From an uncultured Gemmatimonadota bacterium (GTDB lineage: Bacteria; JAAXHH01): a stretch of 64,000 bases of DNA. The stretch's first letter is position 1, and every line of letters begins with the position of its first letter. The translations under genes and the position numbers were made by a program. Positions 1-10,734 of this stretch are shown here, piece after piece. Below the pieces are notes generated by a model. The model worked only from the letters and a program-made list of their open reading frames with translations, ran no database searches and had not been told where the DNA came from. Location of the stretch: assembly GCA_951812955.1 (NCBI GenBank), contig OX638340.1, forward strand, positions 3,616,001 to 3,680,000, given 5' to 3'.

Positions 1-1
1 G

Positions 2-1069
2 GTCCGTTTCCCCTCGGATGATACCGCCCTCGACCGGATCGAACGCTTCATGCAGCGGCTGGGGATACCCGTGGTGGCCTCCGTGGGCGGAGAGGTCGCC
101 GTGTACAGCGCCATGGCGCTGAGTTCACTTTCGGGCCTGGGCAACCTGTTCATCCCCATGGTCGTGGCCGCGCTGATCATCCTGAACACCATGATGAACG
201 CCGTCTATGAACGCTTCAGCGAAATCGGCGTATACAGCGCCGTGGGCCTGGCGCCGGCGCACATTGGCGCGTTGTTCATGGCCGAAGCCGCCATGTACGC
301 CGTGATCGGCGGCATGTCCGGCTACCTCATCGGGCAGACCGTTGCCCGCGGCATCACGGAATACGAGATGCTTGCGGGGTTGACGCTGAACTATTCCTCC
401 CTGTCCGCGGTGGCCTCGACGGCCATGGTCATGGTGGTGGTCATGCTCTCGACGATTTATCCAGCGCGCAAGGCCTCCCAGATGGCCGTTCCGGACGTCA
501 ACAGGCAGTGGTCCTTCCCCGATCCCGAAGGCGACGACTGGCGTTTCGAGTTTCCCTTTACCATCAGCCGCACGGAGACGCTCGGCCTGTGTGCTTATCT
601 GACCCGGTTCTTCGAGTCCTACGGCGAGAGTACGCTGGGGAGTTTCATGACGGACGAGGTGGGCCTGACGGGCAGGAATGGCGGCGCGACCGGCGCAGAC
701 GCGGACTCCGCATCGGGCGCGGCTACTGATTCCGCAGCCGGCGGGAACTTCGAATCGGCAGACGCCGCGGCCACGTACGAAATCACCATGAAGACTTGGC
801 TGGCCCCTTACGACACGGGAGTCAGCCAGCAGGTGACCCTTCACGCGTCGCCCGCCGAGGACGAACACGACCTGTACGCCGTGTGGGTGCACATCTATCG
901 CCTGAGCGGCGACGTGGATTCATGGCAACGACTCAACCGCCGCTTCCTGAACGTGCTACGCAAGCAGTTCCTGGTCTGGCGCACCGTGGACCAGGAGGTC
1001 AAAACGGTCTACGCGGGTGAGGGGCGGGAGATGATTGCATCCGTAGCGGGAGACGCGGTCGAAGCTTGA
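2..1069 (+). CDS. ABC transporter permease, FtsX/MacB-like C-terminal 4-TM domain followed by ~200-aa soluble extension (5' partial; continues upstream of window)
   Basis: Frame open from position 2 with no upstream stop. Hydrophobic block ...IGVYSAVGLAPAHIGALFMAEAAMYAVIGGMSGYLIG... is typical of FtsX-family permease helices. Stop at 1067-1069. Confidence 0.7.
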   Translation, partial: VRFPSDDTALDRIERFMQRLGIPVVASVGGEVAVYSAMALSSLSGLGNLFIPMVVAALIILNTMMNAVYERFSEIGVYSAVGLAPAHIGALFMAEAAMYAVIGGMSGYLIGQTVARGITEYEMLAGLTLNYSSLSAVASTAMVMVVVMLSTIYPARKASQMAVPDVNRQWSFPDPEGDDWRFEFPFTISRTETLGLCAYLTRFFESYGESTLGSFMTDEVGLTGRNGGATGADADSASGAATDSAAGGNFESADAAATYEITMKTWLAPYDTGVSQQVTLHASPAEDEHDLYAVWVHIYRLSGDVDSWQRLNRRFLNVLRKQFLVWRTVDQEVKTVYAGEGREMIASVAGDAVEA

Positions 1070-1170
1070 GCGTTCCCCGGTCCCGCCGGGCTCGCAAACG
1101 CGCCAGAGCGCTCCCCGTGGCTGCGGCGGTAGAGATATTGGTTTGAGCGCGGTCCTGATTGTCAGGCTGA

Positions 1171-1176
1171 AGGAGG
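1171..1176 (+). promoter_or_regulatory. Ribosome binding site (AGGAGG) for cupin gene
   Basis: AGGAGG lies 6 nt upstream of ATG 1183. Confidence 0.6.
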
Positions 1177-1182
1177 AATTCC

Positions 1183-1653
1183 ATGGAAGGCGGCGGCAGC
1201 GAAGGCTCCTGGCTCAACACGCTCATGGGACAGAACGTTCGGGTTATGACGCCGGGATCCGCCACGGAGGATCGCGTGACGGTCATCGAGGCCGTCGAGC
1301 CGCCCCACAGCTCGCCGCCCGTCTTCACCCGCCACGCCTTCATCGAGATGTTCCTGGTCGTCAGAGGTGCCCTGACGTTTCAGTTTCTACACGAAAGCGC
1401 CTTTGTGATCGAAGCTGGCCAGATGGTGACCGTACCCGGCTACCGGCCCCATTCCTTCTGGAACGAGGGGGACGACCCGGCGGCGGTCATGCTGATCTGC
1501 ACGCCCGCGGGGTTGGACCGGTTCTTCGAGGCTTCCGATCGGCTGCTTCGGCGCATGCCGCCGGACACGACCGATCCCGATGAGTTGAAAGCGGAGATGG
1601 CACGCCTTCGGAAGGAGTTCGGGCTGGAACACGTGGCGCCGGCGCCGCGGTGA
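1183..1653 (+). CDS. Cupin-domain protein (small single-cupin barrel)
   Basis: 156-aa ORF with strong RBS; sequence resembles the cupin_2 fold (…EMFLVVRGALTFQF…GQMVTVPGYRPHSFWNEGDDPAAVMLICTP…). Confidence 0.75.
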   Translation: MEGGGSEGSWLNTLMGQNVRVMTPGSATEDRVTVIEAVEPPHSSPPVFTRHAFIEMFLVVRGALTFQFLHESAFVIEAGQMVTVPGYRPHSFWNEGDDPAAVMLICTPAGLDRFFEASDRLLRRMPPDTTDPDELKAEMARLRKEFGLEHVAPAPR

Positions 1654-1954
1654 GGCTTGATTGTCTTAAGGAGGTAACGCTGTCGTTCAGATATACGTAA
1701 CTTCCCGAAAAGAACGTTACGGTGTCGACGAAACACCGTGGAATAGCACACGATTGAAGGATTTGATGTATCCTATAAACTGAGTTGACCCCGTTTAGTA
1801 CGTATGAATTTTTGTACAACGAGGAGTGTTCGACACAACTCCAAGAAATGTGAATCTGTCTACAAACTGGTAATCTTGGTTTTATGTGCACCGGGTAAAG
1901 TCAGTCCGCGTGGGTATGACAGCGTTTATCGGAAAGCTCGGTCGTATGAGGATC

Positions 1955-1960
1955 AAGGAG
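1955..1960 (+). promoter_or_regulatory. Ribosome binding site (AAGGAG) for TIR-like gene N-terminal segment
   Basis: AAGGAG lies 8 nt upstream of ATG 1969 (GTG at 1966). Confidence 0.55.
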
Positions 1961-1968
1961 TTGGCGTG

Positions 1969-2768
1969 ATGGCGAGAGTCCGAAAGTCAACTGCAATTGA
2001 ACGATTGCAGAGGTTGGTTGATGAGGCTTCAGAGCTGGATATGGAGGATGATAGCTCTCAGGAAGTTCAAAAATGGATACAGGACGTTTATACCGCTTTT
2101 ATCAACATATTCGGTGAGGATAGTTCTCAGTTTTCACGACTTCCGCAAAGTCACAAAACAACCCCAAGTGGGGTTCGTGAATACCTGAGATCAATGGTTT
2201 CCTGCGTCGCGTCTAGTCTCGATGAGATCAAGTACTTTCGGGAGGATGAAACAGAAACTGTGAAACAACCCTCAGAACAGGGTGACTTAAAAGCACCAGA
2301 TAAGGATTGTTACGACCAGGGATCGGCGACAAAAAAGTCTTTGTCGTTCATGGTCACGACGAGGCCGTCCTGCAGGCGGTTGCGAGATTTCTAGAAAAGC
2401 TGAAACTCGAACCAGTAATCCTGCACGAACAGGCGAATCAAGGCCGCACGATCATAGAGAAATTTGAGGATCATTCGGATGCGAGTTTTGCCGTGGTTCT
2501 GCTGACACCTGACGACATAGGCGCGGCCGTTACGGATAAGGCCGATCTACGGCACCGAGCTCGTCAGAACGTAATTCTCGAACTCGGATTCTTCATTGGG
2601 AAGTTGGGTCGCAACAGGGTCTGTGCTCTGAAATCGCGTTGTGTCGAAAATCCGTCGGACGTCGATGGGATGGTCTATATCAACCTCGACGAGCCAGATG
2701 CATGGAAGACCGGACTCGTGCGGGAGTTAATGGCAGCTGGTTTCGCCATCGACGCTAACTGGGTTTAG
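1969..2768 (+). pseudogene. TIR-like domain protein (COG4271/PF10137-type 'predicted nucleotide-binding protein containing TIR-like domain'), split by a -1 frameshift in an A6 homopolymer (2331-2336)
   Basis: The frame-1 ORF (1969..2394, helical N-terminal part) and the frame-0 ORF (2307..2768) overlap. The frame-0 product KKVFVVHGHDEAVLQAVARFLEKLKLEPVILHEQANQGRTIIEKFE…FAVVLLTPDDIG…RARQNVILELGFFIGKLGRNRVCAL…PSDVDGMVYI matches my recollection of the TIR-like family consensus. Adding one A to the run gacAAAAAAgtc fuses the two frames (…ATKKVFVVHG…). Confidence 0.55.
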
Positions 2769-2773
2769 CAGCC

Positions 2774-3079
2774 ATGAACGCACAGTTGTCGATTTCCAAA
2801 ACCGAATTGTCAGCCTATTGTAAAAATCATGGCATCCGACGATTAGCAATTTTCGGATCGGTGCTCCGGCCAGATTTTGGCCCGGAGAGCGATATCGACG
2901 TACTGGTCGAGTTCGCACCGAGTCACACTCCCGGTCTGCTGGGCATGGCCGGATTGGAGATTGAACTATCCGAATTGTTTGGCGGTCGGAAGGTGGACCT
3001 GCGGACTCCTGAGGAATTGAGTCGTTATTTTCGACAGAAGGTCATTGACACGGCAGAAGTTCTATATGTGCAGGGATGA
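2774..3079 (+). CDS. mnt: Minimal nucleotidyltransferase (MNT), antitoxin partner of the HepT/MNT type II TA family
   Basis: 101 aa; contains the hallmark GS-x9-13-DxD motif (LAIFGSVLRPDFGPESDIDVLVEF). It starts 6 nt after the TIR-like stop codon and its 3' end overlaps the following HepT remnant. Confidence 0.8.
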   Translation: MNAQLSISKTELSAYCKNHGIRRLAIFGSVLRPDFGPESDIDVLVEFAPSHTPGLLGMAGLEIELSELFGGRKVDLRTPEELSRYFRQKVIDTAEVLYVQG

Positions 3080-3188
3080 CGAAATCCCATTACAGCACAT
3101 GTTGGACGCCGAGCGGGAGGCAGTGTGTTTTTCACGAGGACACAGTTGGTTGCAGCCGCTAAGTCAAGCCTACCATATCGCGCGTGAA
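3066..3188 (+). pseudogene. hepT: HepT (HEPN, DUF86) toxin remnant, truncated to ~40 codons
   Basis: An ATG at 3066 overlaps the MNT stop in the usual MNT-HepT arrangement. The translation MCRDDEIPLQHMLDAEREAVCFSRGHSW… resembles a HepT N-terminus, but a stop follows after 40 codons, before where the Rx4-6H HEPN motif would lie. Confidence 0.45.
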
Positions 3189-3550
3189 TAGTAATCCAGG
3201 ATGGTGGTGTCCGAAGTCACGAGCAGGCATTTGTTCAATTTGGCCGTGGCCACGATCGTGCGGTCGACAGGATCCCGGTGATCCCAGTCCAGTTCGAGAT
3301 TCCCAATCCATGTCCGCACGTCCACTGGACGTACTTCAATCCGTTCGGTCCGTTCCAGATTTTATGCGAAGTCCTGAATGGACAGGGGCAACACAAGATC
3401 GGCCTTTTTCACCCTAACGCCGATCTCCCAGATCGAGATCGAACTGATGCACACGCGGTCGGCTTGTGTAATCGTCTGGTCGTCGATTTTGGACAGGCGT
3501 TCGGGATCCAGTGTCCAGAAAACAAGCGCGGACGTATCCAGTACGACCAT
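3172..3550 (-). pseudogene. PIN-domain (VapC-like) toxin gene disrupted by an in-frame TAA and a frameshift
   Basis: The N-terminal 62 codons (MVVLDTSALVFWTLDPE…) end at TAA (3362-3364). Read in the same frame, the next stretch is …IEVRPVDVRTWIGNLELDWDHRDPVDRTIVATA, which carries the conserved PIN motif. The C-terminal …LLVTSDTTILDYYSRA lies in another frame. Confidence 0.55.
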
Positions 3551-3780
3551 TACGTTTCATCCCATTCGTCGATTGTCGGTGTGTCGATGTCTCCATGATA
3601 GACGATCTTTCCCCGCAGTCCATCGAAGATCCTGTCAACCGATTGCTTTGGCTTTATGGGTTTTACACTGAGAACTGGACTCCGGTTATGCGTTACGATC
3701 AGATCCTCGCCCGATTCCTCGATTTCTCGAAATACCCGAAGCATATTGGCCTTCAGCTTGCTCTTCGATTTGAACAGCAT
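3550..3780 (-). CDS. Phd/YefM-family type II antitoxin
   Basis: 76 aa. KLKANMLRVFREIEESGEDLIVTHNRSPVLSVKPI matches the Phd/YefM N-terminal consensus. It overlaps the downstream PIN start by 1 nt (ATGA). Confidence 0.65.
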   Translation of the reverse strand: MLFKSKSKLKANMLRVFREIEESGEDLIVTHNRSPVLSVKPIKPKQSVDRIFDGLRGKIVYHGDIDTPTIDEWDET

Positions 3781-3950
3781 ATGGACTCCAGTCTGTTTAG
3801 TAAAAGACTATGGGCATGACCCTGGTTATATTCGAAGGATTTCCTATGAACCGTCAAGGATTTATCTCATTCTCGGCAACTTAGAAGTCGGATTCCGTGC
3901 GACTATTCCGACTGTATAGGTATGATGTTCAATTCAATGTGTAAGACAGG

Positions 3951-3979
3951 TTGACAATCGACGTCCCGACGTCTAATAT
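3951..3979 (+). promoter_or_regulatory. Sigma70-like promoter TTGACA-N17-TAATAT; start codon 7 nt after the -10 (probably a leaderless transcript); spacer contains two GACGTC palindromes
   Basis: TTGACA at 3951-3956, 17-nt spacer atCGACGTCccGACGTCta, TAATAT at 3974-3979, ATG at 3986. Confidence 0.5.
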
Positions 3980-3985
3980 TAAAAT

Positions 3986-5122
3986 ATGGCCACTAACACC
4001 GAAAGATACGCTCCTGGTCGAGTACGAGATGCGATAATCCGGGTGATGAGACTAACGACAGAAGGTTTGTCTGCTAAACAGATCGCAGCGAGAGTTGCAA
4101 AGATAGAGGGCCACATGCCTGAGTCCTCGATCAGGTCTTATCTTCGTCTGAACACTCCAGAGACATTTGTTCGTGAAAGGAGGGGGGTATACCGCCTTAA
4201 GGTAGATCATGACAGCAGTCTGCAACGAACGATGTTCAGGAGTCCACCTTGGCAGGAACCCTTCAAGTTTGGATCGGCTACATTGTTTCATAGTGAATGT
4301 TTGGATTGGCTGGACGCAAGAGATGACCAATCAATCCACGCGATAGTTACCGATCCACCTTACGGTCTGCAGGAATACACAGCGAAAGAGCAGACGAAAC
4401 TCCGAAATAGGAAGGGGGGGATCTGGAGGATTCCTCCTGCATTTGATGGCCACGTTCGTTCGCCGTTACCAAGATTCACTACTTTAACCGATGAACAAAA
4501 ACTTTATCTTCGGGAGTTTTTCTATATCTGGTCTCGTCTACTGATCCCCAAGTTGGTACCTGGCGCCAACGTGGTCGTTGCCTCCAATCCACTACTCTCC
4601 CACATTGTCGCCGGCGCTATAGCGGATTCGGGGCTTGAAAGACGCGGCGACATCGTCAGGCTTGTTATGACTATGCGTGGCGGTGATCGGCCAAAAGCGG
4701 CACATGATGAATTCAAGGACGTCAGTGTGCTCCCCAGATCAATGTGGGAGCCATGGCTGATATTCCGTAGGCCTGTGGAGGGAAGAGTACAGGACAACCT
4801 CAGAAAATGGAAAACGGGAGGGTTTCGACGGCCGACTGGACTCAAGCCATTCGGAGATGTTATTCAATCTTCCCCGACCAGAAAAAATGAGAAGGCGATA
4901 GCACCTCACCCCAGCCTTAAGCCACAATCCTTCTTACGACGCCTCGTGAGGGGTGTTCTTCCACTAGGTGAGGGTATAGTTGTCGATCCCTTTGCCGGCG
5001 CTGGCTCTACTCTCGCGGCCGCTGAAGCAGTTGGGTACGAGTCAATCGGAATAGAAAAGGATTCTCTGTACTTCAATATGGCCAAGGAAGCACTACAGCC
5101 ACTAGCCGAGCTCGAAGTGTAG
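3986..5122 (+). CDS. DNA methyltransferase (N6-adenine or N4-cytosine; beta-class, motif IV DPPY before motif I) with N-terminal helix-turn-helix-like domain
   Basis: 378 aa. Motif IV is VTDPPYG (aa ~120). Motif I is VVDPFAGAGSTLAAA near the C-terminus. The N-terminal 70 aa (…LSAKQIAARVAKIEG…) look like a winged-helix domain. Confidence 0.8.
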   Translation: MATNTERYAPGRVRDAIIRVMRLTTEGLSAKQIAARVAKIEGHMPESSIRSYLRLNTPETFVRERRGVYRLKVDHDSSLQRTMFRSPPWQEPFKFGSATLFHSECLDWLDARDDQSIHAIVTDPPYGLQEYTAKEQTKLRNRKGGIWRIPPAFDGHVRSPLPRFTTLTDEQKLYLREFFYIWSRLLIPKLVPGANVVVASNPLLSHIVAGAIADSGLERRGDIVRLVMTMRGGDRPKAAHDEFKDVSVLPRSMWEPWLIFRRPVEGRVQDNLRKWKTGGFRRPTGLKPFGDVIQSSPTRKNEKAIAPHPSLKPQSFLRRLVRGVLPLGEGIVVDPFAGAGSTLAAAEAVGYESIGIEKDSLYFNMAKEALQPLAELEV

Positions 5123-5141
5123 GGACTGAAGGAATCCTCAA

Positions 5142-5672
5142 TTACCTGTCTAGGTAAATCCAGTTCTCGCGAAGTTTACTCACGCCAAAGCGGTCAAGTG
5201 TGGCAGTTCGTGTGCCGAGTTCCCCTCTCGGATTGCGTCTAAAGTCTTCGATGGTTACCCTAGATAGGTAGACTTCCCTAAACGTCATTGGAAGTCTTGA
5301 TGAAGAGGGTTCGGTTTTGTTATCGACCTCGTATACAAATACACACATCCACTGGTCGCGCGCGCCATGTGTATCGACCGCACCGCCTTTTTTCTTCGTG
5401 GTTTTGATTTCAAGACCCTGATCTCCCGACTTAACGGAGTTTTCTGCGTAAACTCCCTGAACGAGAAGGTCAGGATGGCCATTGAAGTAGTTGTTTTCAG
5501 TAAGCACCCTTGAATGTTTAGCCAGACTGGCCGTCAGCATGTCCGATAGCACACCAGACATGATAGCGGGTCTCAACATATCGTCAAGCCGTTCCAGTCC
5601 GCGGTCTACCAGATGAGAATTGACATCGTGGAAGAAATCATAAACGTCCTGCATTGCCGACTCGAAATCCAT
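5142..5672 (-). CDS. Putative type II restriction endonuclease (PD-(D/E)XK candidate) partner of the adjacent methyltransferase
   Basis: 176-aa ORF convergent with and 20 nt from the methyltransferase. Candidate catalytic motif …GHPDLLVQ…(20 aa)…GLEIKTTKKK. AT-rich like the rest of the island. Confidence 0.45.
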   Translation of the reverse strand: MDFESAMQDVYDFFHDVNSHLVDRGLERLDDMLRPAIMSGVLSDMLTASLAKHSRVLTENNYFNGHPDLLVQGVYAENSVKSGDQGLEIKTTKKKGGAVDTHGARDQWMCVFVYEVDNKTEPSSSRLPMTFREVYLSRVTIEDFRRNPRGELGTRTATLDRFGVSKLRENWIYLDR

Positions 5673-5864
5673 AATGCGGAGCTGATATGGTAAAGTCGAG
5701 TCAGGATTGAATGATTCTCTTACTACGACATTTCTGGATTGTTTGATCCGTTCGTCTCCTTCATGTTATCTGAATGCATGTTTCAACAAAATGTGATTTA
5801 CTGTGAATTTGTAAACCACTACCTACAATATCATGACCTAGAATCTCATGAAAGTAAAATCAAT

Positions 5865-7019
5865 CTATTCCTCCACGGCCCGCAGATCCAGCGCCAGGTC
5901 GCGGAAGCTCCGCACGCGGTGTAGGGTGACCAGGTTGGTGTCGTGCTGGTTCTTGCCGCCGCGCGCGGTGCGGGCGACGACGAGTAGATCGTCTCCGGAG
6001 ATGACCTGCGAGGCGTAGCTGAAGGACTCCATAATGCTCCTGCTCATGGCCACGCATCCGGCCTGGAACCAGTTGAGGGCGTCCATGCTGTACATAAGCA
6101 TTAGGATACGCCGCTCGTTTCCCGGCGGTCCGCTGAAACCGATTCGCCGAAGGGGTTCCCGGTCCTGCCACGGGTTCGTGGACAGGGTCACCGTGGTCCA
6201 GTAGAGACCGCCTTTATCGTCGTGGACGATCTGAAACTTGCACTGGGCGCCCGGCATGGGGTGGAACTGGAGGAAACGGTAGTCGAGGTTCCGACCGTCG
6301 TCCTCGACCCGTCCGATTGATGCCAGGCTCGACGTCGTGTGGCCATCGACGATCGTGCGCATGACCATCCGGATCTCGCCGTCCACCAGCACGATGTTGC
6401 CCTCCAGGAAGCTGTCGGCCGGCACCTTGTCCTTCAGGCTTTCGGGATATTTCCGCTGCGAGAGCACATCGGGGATACCAGGAAACCGGACGTGATTGGA
6501 CATGCGCCAGGCCGCCGGATCCAGGAGGTCTCGCGCCAGGTCGCCGGCCACCACCAGCGACTTCCAGTCGAAACGGCTGGGCGCGTCGCAGGTCTCGAAG
6601 GCGCGGTAGGCATGCCCGTTGTGGATCAATACCGGCGTCGGTGCGCAGTGGTGCTTCCCTTCGAAGAGCGTGACCGGCCCTTCCCAGGTGAAGCCGCCGT
6701 CCCGGGAGCGGCCGATGACGATGTCCCGGCTTTTGCGCTTGTTTCCGATGAGATAGGCGTCGTCCCCGTAGGCCCAGACGGTCGCCCAGATGAAATCCTG
6801 GCACGACGCGAGGGTCCACGTTGCGCCGTCGTCGTCACTGACCAGTACCTCGGTCTGATCCGGCACGGATTCCTTGAGCGGACTGGGACGGAACCATTCG
6901 TAACTGGCCAGCAGGCGTCCCGAGCGCATCCGCGCGATCGACGGTGAACCGGCGTATACGTTCTCCGGGTCGGGTGACGAGGCCAGTACCTGGTAGTCTT
7001 TGGCGAGCATTCGATTCAT
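5865..7019 (-). CDS. BNR-repeat (sialidase/neuraminidase-like) glycoside hydrolase family protein; no signal peptide
   Basis: 384 aa with Asp-box motifs SDDDGATW and SRDGGFTW. Confidence 0.75.
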   Translation of the reverse strand: MNRMLAKDYQVLASSPDPENVYAGSPSIARMRSGRLLASYEWFRPSPLKESVPDQTEVLVSDDDGATWTLASCQDFIWATVWAYGDDAYLIGNKRKSRDIVIGRSRDGGFTWEGPVTLFEGKHHCAPTPVLIHNGHAYRAFETCDAPSRFDWKSLVVAGDLARDLLDPAAWRMSNHVRFPGIPDVLSQRKYPESLKDKVPADSFLEGNIVLVDGEIRMVMRTIVDGHTTSSLASIGRVEDDGRNLDYRFLQFHPMPGAQCKFQIVHDDKGGLYWTTVTLSTNPWQDREPLRRIGFSGPPGNERRILMLMYSMDALNWFQAGCVAMSRSIMESFSYASQVISGDDLLVVARTARGGKNQHDTNLVTLHRVRSFRDLALDLRAVEE

Positions 7020-7286
7020 GTCTAACGACCTCCTGGTGATTGGGATGTAAAAACGATTCTACCCGGGTGCAACGCGCTTGTCAACGGGAAGGTACCCGCT
7101 GGATCCGCTCGAAATCGCGCTACCCGAATACGAGAGCGCGAGACCTTCCCATAGTTCTTTACACGCGGCGCCATATTGCCCTTGATCTGAATCGCCCCCG
7201 ACCTGTATCATAGAACCGATCACCAGGACAACCATTCCAGATACGAACATAGCGCATCGAACCGGGTCCGCCGGGAGGATACACTT

Positions 7287-8468
7287 ATGGCCGGAAAAAC
7301 CAACCTGTCCCGCAGAGACTTGCTGATCAAGGGAGGGCTCGCGACGGCCGGCATGGCGCTGCTGCCATCCCACGTACTGGCCCAGTTGGCCCAACTGGCG
7401 CGGGACGAGACGCCCGTGGACTGGATCGATGAATTCGGGCCGCCGCAAAGCCCCGATTTCGTCCTGCTGGACTGGAACGGACTCGAATCTTGGATTACGC
7501 CCGTAGACCAGTTCTTCTCGGCGAGCCACTATCCCGAGCCCACCGTGGCCGGAGAGGGCTACAGCCTGGAGGTTTCCGGCGCGGTAAGACAGAAGCTCAA
7601 TCTGAGCCTCGACGAAATCAAGTCCATGCCGAGCAAAGACGTTATCTTCACCCTCGAGTGCTCGGGTAACCGGGGCGTCCCCGTTTTCAGGGGCGGCGTG
7701 TACAACGCCCGGTGGACCGGCACGCCGCTGGCGCCGATCCTGGAACGGGCAGGGATGTGGGGGAACGGTATCGAGGTGGTTTTCTTCGGACACGATGAAG
7801 GGGTCGAGAACATCACGCCAATTCGAAGCGAACCGCTGGCGATGAAACAGAATTTCGCCCGGTCGCTGACCACGAAACAGGCGATGGATCCGGACATCCT
7901 GCTGGCCTATGAGGTTAACGGACAGACGCTGCCGCCGAAGCACGGATATCCCCTGCGGCTCATCGTACCCGGCTGGTACGGCATCACCCAGGTGAAGTGG
8001 CTGAAACGCATCGAGGTGCGCACTACCCGGTACATGGGCAGGTTCATTTCGCGGGATTACGTCACGGTCCGCGAGGAGACCCACAACGGGGAGACCGTAT
8101 GGCGCCAGGAATCTGTTGGAAAAGGCAGGATCAATTCCGTCACGGCACGGGTCACGCGGGTCGGTCCCCTGCACCGGATCTACGGCGCGGTATGGGGCGA
8201 ACCGCTCAGGGAGGTCCAGGTGCGCATCGATGACGGAGCATGGCAGACGGCCGAAATCATCGAGGGGCTGGACGCCGAACACGCCTGGAAGTTCTGGCGG
8301 TTGGACTGGGACAGGCCTTCAGCGGGCGAGCATACGATCACTTCACGGGGCGTAACGACGGGCGGCACGATACAGCCCGCGCCGGACGATCCCTACCTGG
8401 CCGGCAAGAAGACTTACTGGGAAAGTAACGGCCAGGTGACCCGGACTATTCAGATCTTCGAAAGCTAG
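7287..8468 (+). CDS. Sulfite-oxidase-family molybdopterin oxidoreductase with Tat signal peptide
   Basis: N-terminal SRRDLLIKGGLATAGMAL (twin-arginine). Moco-binding region …FTLECSGNRG…, plus a C-terminal dimerisation domain. RBS GGGAGG 8 nt upstream. Confidence 0.8.
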   Translation: MAGKTNLSRRDLLIKGGLATAGMALLPSHVLAQLAQLARDETPVDWIDEFGPPQSPDFVLLDWNGLESWITPVDQFFSASHYPEPTVAGEGYSLEVSGAVRQKLNLSLDEIKSMPSKDVIFTLECSGNRGVPVFRGGVYNARWTGTPLAPILERAGMWGNGIEVVFFGHDEGVENITPIRSEPLAMKQNFARSLTTKQAMDPDILLAYEVNGQTLPPKHGYPLRLIVPGWYGITQVKWLKRIEVRTTRYMGRFISRDYVTVREETHNGETVWRQESVGKGRINSVTARVTRVGPLHRIYGAVWGEPLREVQVRIDDGAWQTAEIIEGLDAEHAWKFWRLDWDRPSAGEHTITSRGVTTGGTIQPAPDDPYLAGKKTYWESNGQVTRTIQIFES

Positions 8469-8485
8469 GGAACGAATCCCGATCC

Positions 8486-9598
8486 ATGGTCATCGATTCC
8501 CACGCTTACTGTTTTCCTCCGGGAGACGCGAAGGCCGGGTACGCGGACGCAGGTGAACACCTCCGTTGGATACAGGCCGAGCACGCGGTCCACCACCAGC
8601 CGGCCTGGCGGGTCCGTGACCGGGCCGCCGCGTCGTCAGATGCGATCGCTCCCGCTTCGCCCGGGGACTGGTCCACGCTTCCCGACGTGGATTTCCGCGT
8701 CGATCGGACCCATGGCCGGGTGGTGTGGACGATCGACGGCGAAGACTGCACCAAGCAGTTCTACCCGCCCCACCTGCGCAACCTGGAATACACCCCCGAC
8801 GGCCTGATCGCCGAGATGGACTATGCGGGCGTGGACGCCGCCCTGCTCCATACCAATCCCATGCTGAACCGGGACAGCGCGTTTCAGGCCGAATGTATCG
8901 CCGCATTTCCCGACCGGCTGTACTCCATGGCGCCCGTGGAAGAGTGGCGCATCGCGGCGGAACCGGACCGGGTGATCAATGAGATTGAACGGGCCGTGCG
9001 CGTTCGCGGGCTGCACGCCGTCAAGTTCAACGCCACGCTGGCATATCGCGAAAGTGACGAACGCTGGTGCGGTGGCGCCTACCGCCCCTTCTGGGATGCC
9101 GTGGCCACGCTGAAGGTCCCGGTTTTCTTTACCCTGGGCGCCGGACCCGTACTCGGCTACCACAGCGATCTGACGCAGGGCTACTTCAACGAACTCCGCG
9201 TGCTCATGGAATGGATGGACCGGTACCCGGATTCGGTCTGCAGTATCACCCACGGTTTCCCCTGGCGCATGTTTCTCGAAGGCGACCGTCTCGTCTTGCC
9301 TGAGGATCTGTGGAAACCCTACGAGAACCGCAATCTCAGCATGGAAGTCTGCTTTCCCGTGCGCATCGGCGACCTCTTCGACTTTCCCTACAGCGAGGCC
9401 CTACCGGCCCTGGAGGAGTTGGTTGGCCGGATCGGTAGCGACAGGCTGCTGTGGGGCACGGACATGCCCTTCCAGAACAGGTTCTGCACGTATCGGCAGT
9501 CCCGGGACTGGATCGAGAAGTACGCGGGTTTTCTCAGCGAAGCGGACCGTGCCGCGATTATGGGCGGCACCGCCGCGCGAATATTGGGTATTGCGTAG
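8486..9598 (+). CDS. Amidohydrolase-2 family (PF04909-type TIM-barrel metal-dependent hydrolase)
   Basis: 370 aa; N-terminal VIDSHAY… and C-terminal …LLWGTDMPF… match the amidohydrolase-2 signatures. Confidence 0.75.
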   Translation: MVIDSHAYCFPPGDAKAGYADAGEHLRWIQAEHAVHHQPAWRVRDRAAASSDAIAPASPGDWSTLPDVDFRVDRTHGRVVWTIDGEDCTKQFYPPHLRNLEYTPDGLIAEMDYAGVDAALLHTNPMLNRDSAFQAECIAAFPDRLYSMAPVEEWRIAAEPDRVINEIERAVRVRGLHAVKFNATLAYRESDERWCGGAYRPFWDAVATLKVPVFFTLGAGPVLGYHSDLTQGYFNELRVLMEWMDRYPDSVCSITHGFPWRMFLEGDRLVLPEDLWKPYENRNLSMEVCFPVRIGDLFDFPYSEALPALEELVGRIGSDRLLWGTDMPFQNRFCTYRQSRDWIEKYAGFLSEADRAAIMGGTAARILGIA

Positions 9599-9675
9599 CG
9601 AGCAGCTGACGCAGTGGGAATGTGACGTTCTCGAAAACTGTTAAAAGAATAGATAACTTTGTGATACTTTAAGTA

Positions 9676-9726
9676 CCCGGACCTGCACCCGCACCCGGCC
9701 CCGCACCCGGCCCCGAGCCCGCAGGT
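9676..9726. repeat. GC-rich degenerate tandem repeat (gcacccggcccc-like, ~3-4 units) upstream of the uxuA-like gene
   Basis: cccggacctgcacccgcacccggccccgcacccggccccgagcccgcagg. Confidence 0.5.
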
Positions 9727-9747
9727 TTACATAACCCGGAGGATTCC

Positions 9748-10734
9748 ATGCACGTCGGTACCCAGCAGTTTAGCACGGCGGACGAAGACCTGGAGTATCT
9801 CGCCCGCCACGGCGTCTTCAACAAGAACGAGAATAACATTACCTTCCACAGGGAATATGGATGGGACGTGGAGGAACTGGCGGCCAAGAAGGAGAAGTGC
9901 GCCCGGTTCGGCATCAACATGGAGATGGTGGCCCTGCCTATCGCCCAGTTCAACGTCGACGGCGGCCAGGTGCCCAATTACATGCTGGGGAAATACGAGG
10001 AAGGCGACAAGGAAATCGAACTGGTGTGCAACATGGTGCGCCAGGCCTCGGAAGCGGGCATCCCCGCGATCAAATACTACCTTTGCGAGATGGAGAACCA
10101 GCGCACCGAGAGCGATCCGCCCGGACGCGGAGGTTCGATCTACAGCACCTGGGACCTGGAGAAGGCGAAGGACCGGCCGCCGCGGTACGACGAACCCGTA
10201 ACGGCCGAGATGAATTGGGCCCGCATAACCTACTTCCTTGAACGGGTGATCCCCGTGGCGACCGAGTGCAAAGTCCGCATGGCCTGCCATCCCTGCGATC
10301 CGTGGCTGCCGCCCGGCTATCGCTGCGTGGACCGCGTGCTCGGCGGCTTCGACGGGTTCAAGCAATTCATTGAGATCTGTCCCAGTCCGTACCACGGCAT
10401 GAATCTATGCCTGGGTTGCATGGCTGAGAGTTCGCTCGACCCGCGCAACGAGGTGCCTGACATTATTCGATACCTGGGATCGCGGAACAAGATCTTCCTC
10501 TGCCATTTCCGAAACATCGTGGGCGGGAGGAACAAGTTCCAGGAAGTCTGGCCCGACGAGGGCGTCATGAACATGCACCGCAACATGCAAGCGCTCAAAG
10601 AAGTCGGCTACGATCACATGTGCGTGCCCGATCACGCGCCTGGGCACAAGGATCCGGACAGCTACCGGCAGGCCTTCGCCTACGAGTTCGGCTATATTCA
10701 GGCGATGATCCAGGCGGTGATGGACGAGGGGTAG
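9748..10734 (+). CDS. uxuA-like: Mannonate dehydratase (UxuA)-family TIM-barrel protein (short form)
   Basis: 328 aa with the segments KVRMACHPCDP, IFLCHFRNI and VPDHAPGH. From memory these correspond to VRMAVHPDDP, IYFTHLRS and RPDHGHQ of E. coli UxuA. RBS GGAGGA 5 nt upstream. Confidence 0.6.
   Translation: MHVGTQQFSTADEDLEYLARHGVFNKNENNITFHREYGWDVEELAAKKEKCARFGINMEMVALPIAQFNVDGGQVPNYMLGKYEEGDKEIELVCNMVRQASEAGIPAIKYYLCEMENQRTESDPPGRGGSIYSTWDLEKAKDRPPRYDEPVTAEMNWARITYFLERVIPVATECKVRMACHPCDPWLPPGYRCVDRVLGGFDGFKQFIEICPSPYHGMNLCLGCMAESSLDPRNEVPDIIRYLGSRNKIFLCHFRNIVGGRNKFQEVWPDEGVMNMHRNMQALKEVGYDHMCVPDHAPGHKDPDSYRQAFAYEFGYIQAMIQAVMDEG

Follow-up and report, generated by a model that had tools for sequence, protein, structure and literature searches.

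Several described defence systems come close to the locus considered here. The effectors Cap12 (TIR-STING; PDB 7un8 and 9lmq) and PycTIR (8jsj) carry TIR-like domains of family PF10137, and MntA-HepT pairs such as Shewanella SO_3165/SO_3166 are type VII toxin-antitoxin (TA) systems. PrrC-EcoprrI and other toxins are nested in restriction-modification (R-M) operons (review PMC3710099), and the developers of PADLOC have predicted "phage defence candidates" (PDC) by "guilt by embedding" in known defence systems (bioRxiv 10.1101/2024.01.29.577857). We analysed a 64,000-nt stretch of an uncultured Gemmatimonadota genome (contig OX638340.1; hereafter the window), in which positions 1969-2768 hold a TIR-like gene divided between two reading frames and followed by a gene for a minimal nucleotidyltransferase (MNT), mntA. 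The window's copy of this gene, which is normally continuous and encodes ~266 aa, has a one-base lesion. The lesion is an ordinary single-base one in a catalogued defence-candidate family and comes with no recoding signal. The gene should be annotated as a frameshifted PDC-S35 and not as a stand-alone 153-aa TIR protein. Its main interest lies in the relatives, in which the TIR gene, mntA and hepT make up a conserved cassette that survives in the window as a decaying remnant.

With one base restored, the protein matches the PADLOC model PDC-S35 (PDLC05005) from one end to the other (residues 7-264 on profile positions 4-260 of 264, E 1.9e-80), and its relatives lie inside or beside R-M and Abi genes. 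The window copy differs in being frameshifted, a one-base deletion dividing what should be an intact single open reading frame (ORF). PDC-S35 is a single-gene candidate in PADLOC, a label that omits the consistent mntA-hepT link of the closer subfamily described below. It is not named in the developers' preprint, and we found no published mention or test of it in the literature; the PF10137 literature that we found dealt with TIR classification only.

The likeness to Cap12 and PycTIR extends to the PF10137 family, the fold and an NV..E.G motif with its glutamate, and PycTIR also has its TIR domain C-terminal to another domain. In contrast to these effectors, neither the protein nor its 109 relatives contain STING, SAVED or cyclic-nucleotide-binding domains detectable with Pfam, and the NCBIfam Cap12 equivalog models scored 29-34 bits against a cut-off of 450. 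Nor is there an adjacent CD-NTase or pyrimidine cyclase gene as in CBASS and Pycsar: the neighbours are a cupin gene, the MNT gene, vapBC and a DNA methyltransferase (MTase) gene, and in related loci MNT/HepT or Mod/Res genes. With no signal-binding domain, Cap12 scores far below cut-off and no cyclase alongside, we rejected membership among the CBASS or Pycsar effectors.

Layout and domains of the divided gene

The gene comprises the following features, all on the forward strand:

1953..1958, forward strand: AAGGAG, resembling a Shine-Dalgarno sequence, 10 nt 5' of ATG 1969 (read from the sequence)
1969..2336, forward strand: N-terminal part, comprising a helical domain (~residues 1-95), a disordered linker and two lysine codons (translation)
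2329..2337, forward strand: lesion site, ACA AAA AAG in the upstream frame (pairwise alignments, allele comparison)
2337..2768, forward strand: TIR domain (PF10137, CAP12/PycTIR type) in the -1 frame (Pfam, PDB-chain profile search, Foldseek)

Translation from ATG 1969, the start also used by the intact orthologues L001, L004 and L084, ends at a premature TAG (2392-2394) and gives 141 aa, 123 native and 18 out of frame. The second frame is open from 2304, has TTG 2307 as its first start codon and stops at TAG 2766-2768; the A6 run (2331-2336) falls within the overlap of the two frames. Because the downstream frame is displaced by -1, one added base joins both halves: placed at 2330/2331, it yields a 266-aa fused protein identical to a database protein (P0121, from L084), with a junction (...GSATKKVFVVHGH...) that is the family consensus. 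The single-base-short allele of the window reads GCGACAAAAAAGTC, within region 2300-2360. The sequence-only reading had described this two-frame layout with its one-base lesion at the A6 run, and coordinates and translations agree with it. It had also remarked on the tight linkage to the MNT gene, which indeed starts at 2774, leaving a spacer of 5 nt after the TIR stop. AAAAAAG occurs seven times in the window and the A run is not statistically special. A promoter scan found no sigma-70-like promoter upstream of the TIR gene, Rfam returned no RNA families in window positions 1-9000, and no tRNA genes were found within the window.

The TIR-like domain had been recognised by its likeness to the family consensus, and the profile search bears this out well above the cut-off. 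PF10137 matches residues 123-241 of the repaired protein with E 1.3e-39 and 135.3 bits, where the cut-off is 24.7, and takes in profile positions 1-118 of 119; the TIR domain therefore starts with the codon that immediately follows the A run. For structure we used the AlphaFold2 model of the 96%-identical orthologue P0001 (pLDDT 80.5), not the window sequence. In this model, helices at 7-23, 32-49, 54-57 and 67-91 make up a four-helix N-domain (7-91), followed by a disordered linker (96-120, low confidence) and a TIR fold (124-257). Among PDB entries Foldseek placed the SfSTING TIR domain first (E 1.9e-5; TIR-STING 9lmq), then the TIR domains of MyD88, SpbK and SPARTA, and the family profile matches Cap12/TIR-STING and PycTIR chains in the PDB by sequence. 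Glu205, in RQNVILELG, is invariant across 110 sequences and aligns with the glutamate of RDNVVFEFG in the Cap12 chains; we take it to be the catalytic residue of TIR NADases.

The N-terminal part had been described as helical and unassigned, which holds on both counts: the model shows helices, and no Pfam family matches it in any of the 109 family members. A word-indexed search with the N-domain by itself returned no matches, and an exhaustive phmmer search against 1.84 billion representatives gave only 11, nearly all of them members of the same family or fragments; neither search gave any sign that other effectors share this domain. Judged from these searches and the predicted fold, the N-domain is a family-specific helical bundle. 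In the intact protein it would restrain the TIR domain or sense infection. By analogy with the PF10137 relatives TIR-STING (Cap12) and PycTIR, the activated TIR domain would hydrolyse NAD+ through the conserved glutamate, and this hydrolysis would cause abortive infection.

Orthologues, alleles and the origin of the frameshift

Searching with the repaired protein returned thousands of matches, and the best 120 are nearly all 265-271 aa long with 99-100% query coverage. In a DNA-level survey of 78 homologues, 76 are encoded in one frame; the shifted copies are those of the window and of L014 only. An A run of at least six at the junction occurs in just six of the 78. Continuous ORFs of ~267 aa are thus what the orthologues contain, and not the separate pair of genes with a stand-alone 153-aa TIR protein that the sequence-only reading had named as grounds for giving up its view. 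Two 148-aa database entries (P0060 and P0062) are internal-ATG calls inside uninterrupted 268-aa ORFs of L002 and L003, and the public gene calls of 148-153 aa in this family are artefacts of an internal start or a frameshift. The internal ATG of both entries lies four codons before the TIR domain (4001-4447 in L002 and in L003).

We compared the junction with that of four near-identical or close syntenic loci, all of which have an intact TIR gene:

L084 (ENA scaffold; 99.0% nucleotide identity over 4.9 kb): GCG ACC AAA AAG GTC
L004 (Gemmatimonadetes MAG, metagenome-assembled genome, APA_bin_41; 97.6% nucleotide identity over 6.6 kb): GCG ACC AAA AAA GTC
L085 (MKWU01003041.1): GCG ACC AAA AAA GTC
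L001 (ENA contig; 91% nucleotide identity): GCG ACA AAA AAA GTC
window: GCG ACA AAA AAG TC, one base short

The indel census of the window region covered up to ~6.6 kb, and in pairwise alignments with L004 (6.6 kb) and L084 (4.9 kb) no coding indel other than the lesion appears. The loss of one base is thereby upheld, but the base need not have been an A of the run, as had been proposed. Since L084, L004 and L085, whose alleles are most like that of the window, read ACC, the lost base may be the C of a CC dinucleotide and not an A of an A7 tract; the L001 allele, ACA AAA AAA, would fit loss of A from A7. By exact-sequence look-up, the 153-aa frameshifted product (P0122) occurs on a single 3.81-Mb contig and intact members of its 90% cluster on ~10 contigs.

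These alignments bear on each of the ways in which the break might be read. If the two frames were genes in their own right, the first for an N-domain protein and the second for a 153-aa TIR protein started at TTG 2307, this would agree with the 153-aa TTG-start product in public databases (P0122) and with the 148-aa entries of relatives. Those entries, however, sit within continuous 268-aa ORFs, the AAGGA before TTG 2307 abuts it at an unusable spacing, and the frame offers no other start codon. Moreover, the residues read from 2307-2336 in that frame (LRPGIGDKK) are unlike the family, whereas the other frame (DCYDQGSATKK) matches it. The orthologue alignments rule out a stand-alone TIR gene, and we give this reading practically no weight. 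Programmed -1 frameshifting, or transcriptional slippage, would by default make a short N-domain protein and rarely a TIR protein. A_AAA_AAG is the classic bacterial -1 heptamer of dnaX and IS3 type; it stands at 2331-2337 in the zero frame of ATG 1969, and a -1 slip there would yield exactly the wild-type ...ATKKVFVVHGH, so that, as at dnaX- and IS3-type sites, shifting to the -1 frame produces the full-length protein. There is also an AGGGA 8 nt upstream, and a local hairpin is predicted. The shift is nevertheless unconserved, unlike that of dnaX- and IS3-type sites, stemming from a deletion in one assembly and having no convincing stimulatory element. Coding runs in one frame in L084, L004, L085, L001, L002, L003 and 70 others, and most of the 78 homologues have no A run at the junction. 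The fold of 2300-2420 has a z-score of only -1.97 and its main local helix takes up the slippery site itself, and AGGGA represents conserved Gln-Gly codons that unshifted alleles also have. The heptamer stands in the upstream frame because of the deletion, as a by-product of it. One-frame orthologues, a hairpin that includes the slippery site and an AGGGA made of conserved codons led us to reject programmed recoding, which we consider very improbable, although incidental slippage leakiness at the heptamer is plausible. A phase-variable switch, in which slipped-strand mispairing at the A tract would toggle a toxic effector ON and OFF, is equally hard to credit. It could draw on two independent OFF alleles (window and L014) at the same A tract and on ON alleles with A6 or A7 tracts among relatives. 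The tract is just 6-7 nt long, however, and known contingency tracts usually have at least 8 nt; most family members have no tract, in L084, the closest relative, it reads A5G, and sequencing errors are probable in L014. Across assemblies, one contig is OFF and ~10 are ON.

Of the three explanations originally offered for the break, the programmed shift thus falls, shift and slippery run both being absent from orthologues, while sequencing error and recent pseudogenisation both stand. On balance we lean towards a real, very recent loss-of-function mutation, though without great assurance. In its favour, independent assemblies show nested lesions in the toxin genes of the surrounding island, and long ORFs lie closely packed over the rest of the 64-kb window. 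Other copies of the family have been broken independently by different kinds of change: L018 has taken up an insertion, L077 has an in-frame stop and L006 is truncated at its 5' end. Several observations weigh against it. The site borders a homopolymer, where a consensus indel is possible, and nothing has decayed past the shift (dN 0 and dS 0.011 against L084, for nonsynonymous and synonymous divergence), as would fit an artefact or a very recent event. The sole other shifted copy, L014, is broken at the same site, with A6 in place of the required A7, and a conserved Peptidase_M28/FtsX gene in the same 10.8 kb is frameshifted as well. This second shift points to indel errors in the L014 assembly, and such errors thus occur in assemblies of this kind. 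The L001 contig, too, has many 1-nt indels. Together with the presence of the lesion on one contig among ~11 carrying cluster members, these points make it a serious possibility, though one that we rate below even, that the genome has ACC AAA AAA or ACA AAA AAA and that a base was dropped in the long-read consensus. Such an error would be at odds with the absence of further coding indels over 4.9-6.6 kb against two independent assemblies, with the uninterrupted long ORFs across the 64-kb window and with the real, independently confirmed lesions in neighbouring toxin genes. If the ancestor read ACC AAA AAA, the loss would be of the C of a dinucleotide, which is a less typical homopolymer error.

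If the mutation is real, one base was lost at the boundary of linker and TIR domain, translation would stop at 2392-2394 and the TIR domain would not be made; rare -1 slippage on the accidental A_AAA_AAG may restore some TIR protein. The frameshift would then be the latest step in a stepwise inactivation of toxin genes that took in a hepT deletion, a vapC nonsense mutation and finally the TIR gene.

The assemblies mentioned above show some further details. L014 is a 70%-identical orthologue in a chromosome-level MAG (OZ245326.1), with the junction AGC AAA AAA TCT at 5340-5380 and the Peptidase_M28/FtsX frameshift at ~2085-2097. L001 (ERZ18545484 ptg007879l, 5195-10503) differs from the window by 17 single-base indels (14 insertions) in ~5 kb. 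These disrupt the cupin, 384-aa and Mo-oxidoreductase genes, the mark of a low-quality consensus, and leave the TIR gene intact. The insertion in L018 (4353-5159) is ~800 nt long and contains what looks by eye like a transposase remnant (ISL3-like), and the stop in L077 (~5120-5172) falls within RG*TIIEKF.

The TIR-mntA-hepT cassette in relatives

We defined a closer subfamily of 20 loci whose proteins align with the query from its first residue onwards (42-100% identity). The arrangement of TIR-like, MNT and HepT genes had been called unusual. On the contrary, it recurs in 15-16 of these 20 relatives across several phyla. In 15 of them the TIR gene is followed 0-46 nt downstream by an MNT gene, stop and start codons often overlapping as ATGA, and one further locus (L012) has an extra 1.2 kb between the TIR gene and mntA; HepT follows MNT in 13. 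HepT with the Rx4-6H motif is present in L003, L005, L014, L015, L078 and others. Compared with the MNT of L003, those of the subfamily show 41-90% identity, and the hosts comprise Gemmatimonadota, Alpha- and Gammaproteobacteria, Terriglobia/Bryobacterales (Acidobacteriota), Nitrospirales (Nitrospirota) and Binatia. Given this wide range of identities and spread of hosts, the TIR-MNT linkage is old. From the co-divergence run of TIR, MNT and HepT we used the MNT and HepT identities only, since the TIR values, taken from the first high-scoring segment pairs of over-extended ORFs, are unreliable. Neither MNT nor HepT accompanies the TIR gene in any of 17 full-length relatives that are more distant (~40% identity); their neighbours are MmeI-type R-M, AbiU2, AbiTii, PIN/IrrE or transposase genes.

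In about ten loci of the closer subfamily the genes lie on one strand as mod-TIR-mntA-hepT-res, with stop and start codons overlapping by 4 nt (L007, L009, L010, L012, L013, L015, L016, L017, L021 and L078, at ~2400-9300 in each). The upstream flanking gene (~850 aa) encodes a type III methyltransferase (PADLOC MTase_III, E 2.4e-150; Pfam N6_N4_Mtase) and the downstream one (~960 aa) a ResIII protein. The cassette thus shares with PrrC-EcoprrI the layout of a latent toxin in an R-M operon, but the host system is type III and not type Ic, and the effectors are a TIR domain and a HepT RNase in place of an ABC-HEPN anticodon nuclease. The window cassette, unlike PrrC-EcoprrI, stands outside any R-M operon. 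We found no literature linking HEPN/MNT, type III restriction and embedding. One of these loci, L017, has a second MNT-HepT pair upstream of the cassette.

The comparison with MntA-HepT type VII TA systems is similarly partial. As in those systems, a minimal nucleotidyltransferase gene is present, here downstream of the TIR gene, and in relatives it overlaps the HepT gene (PF01934) by 14 nt. In contrast to them, hepT is a 26-codon stub in the window, and an upstream TIR gene is foreign to the two-gene systems described. In the subfamily the TIR gene would be co-transcribed, and probably translationally coupled, with the MntA-HepT type VII TA pair. We tentatively propose, as a possible reading about which we keep considerable doubt, that TIR, MntA and HepT of the closer subfamily form a coupled three-gene module of second-line abortive infection, typically set between type III mod and res, in which MntA may control the TIR protein. 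The two effectors would act by NAD+ depletion and as an RNase, and the window would represent a late stage of dismantling. The cassette is of interest as a candidate tripartite abortive-infection module with a candidate nucleotidyltransferase-regulated TIR effector. Control of the TIR protein by MntA, if true, would explain why mntA has stayed intact and constrained long after the hepT deletion; a constrained mntA is compatible with such a role and does not prove it.

The low-GC island and its toxin genes

Downstream of the TIR gene, the window holds the following features of the TA genes:

2774..3079, forward strand: intact MNT-type minimal nucleotidyltransferase (MntA-like antitoxin), 101 aa (Pfam Polbeta and NTP_transf_2; PADLOC PDC-S09, E 1.3e-24)
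3066..3191, forward strand: hepT stub, ~26 homologous codons (compared with the complete HepT of L003 and, at the DNA level, with L014, where hepT survives)
3170..3550, reverse strand: pseudogene of vapC (PIN-domain toxin), with TAA at 3362-3364 (Pfam PIN, E 7e-15; read-through translation)
3550..3780, reverse strand: 76-aa ORF, upstream of and overlapping vapC (position conserved in L001, L002 and L084)

The window MNT scores above the Pfam cut-offs for Polbeta and NTP_transf_2 and has a visible GS...DxD motif (FGSVLRPDFGPESDIDV); against the NCBIfam MntA equivalog it reaches 39.5 bits, below the cut-off of 60. In lineages without hepT, dN/dS of mntA is ~0.3. The remainder of hepT, which in intact relatives matches PF01934, was removed by a deletion of ~320 nt that took the Rx4-6H RNase motif with it. 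Alignment shows the same deletion in L001, and in L002, L004 and L084 the gap between mntA and vapC is too small for hepT. The stop in vapC, E63* (GAA to TAA), is found by codon comparison in L004 and L084 and is missing from L001, L002 and L014. Since it occurs in these two independent assemblies while the gene is intact in the other three, it is a real nonsense mutation. The lesions are nested, which from their distribution among relatives would place the loss of hepT before that of vapC and that of the TIR gene last in this lineage; the series would offer a small, clear example of the decay of a defence and toxin island. The 76-aa ORF had no family match in Pfam, PADLOC or NCBIfam; its dN/dS is 0.13-0.22, and from its position it is presumed to encode a VapB-type antitoxin.

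These genes belong to an island that also contains:

~1650..5850, no strand assigned: low-GC island between the cupin gene and the 384-aa gene (composition profile)
3986-5122, forward strand: type II N6/N4 DNA MTase (PADLOC MTase_II, E 1.8e-100)
5142-5672, reverse strand: 176-aa ORF, convergent with the MTase gene (no match in Pfam, PADLOC or NCBIfam)

GC content is 45-53% in the island against 61-65% in the flanks, and GC at third codon positions is ~0.5 against ~0.8. Its contents are the TIR gene, mntA, the hepT stub, vapBC, the type II MTase and the 176-aa ORF. The island (~1850-5750) is ~99.6% identical to that of L004, as against ~96% for the flanking core genes. Compared with L001, dS is 0.03-0.05 for the TIR-mntA segment but 0.5-0.7 for vapBC, and the island is therefore a mosaic. 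Taken together, these values indicate that the island was exchanged recently or is of mosaic origin. The 176-aa ORF is possibly the cognate restriction endonuclease of the MTase, and the pair of MTase and 176-aa ORF is conserved in L002, L004, L014 and L084.

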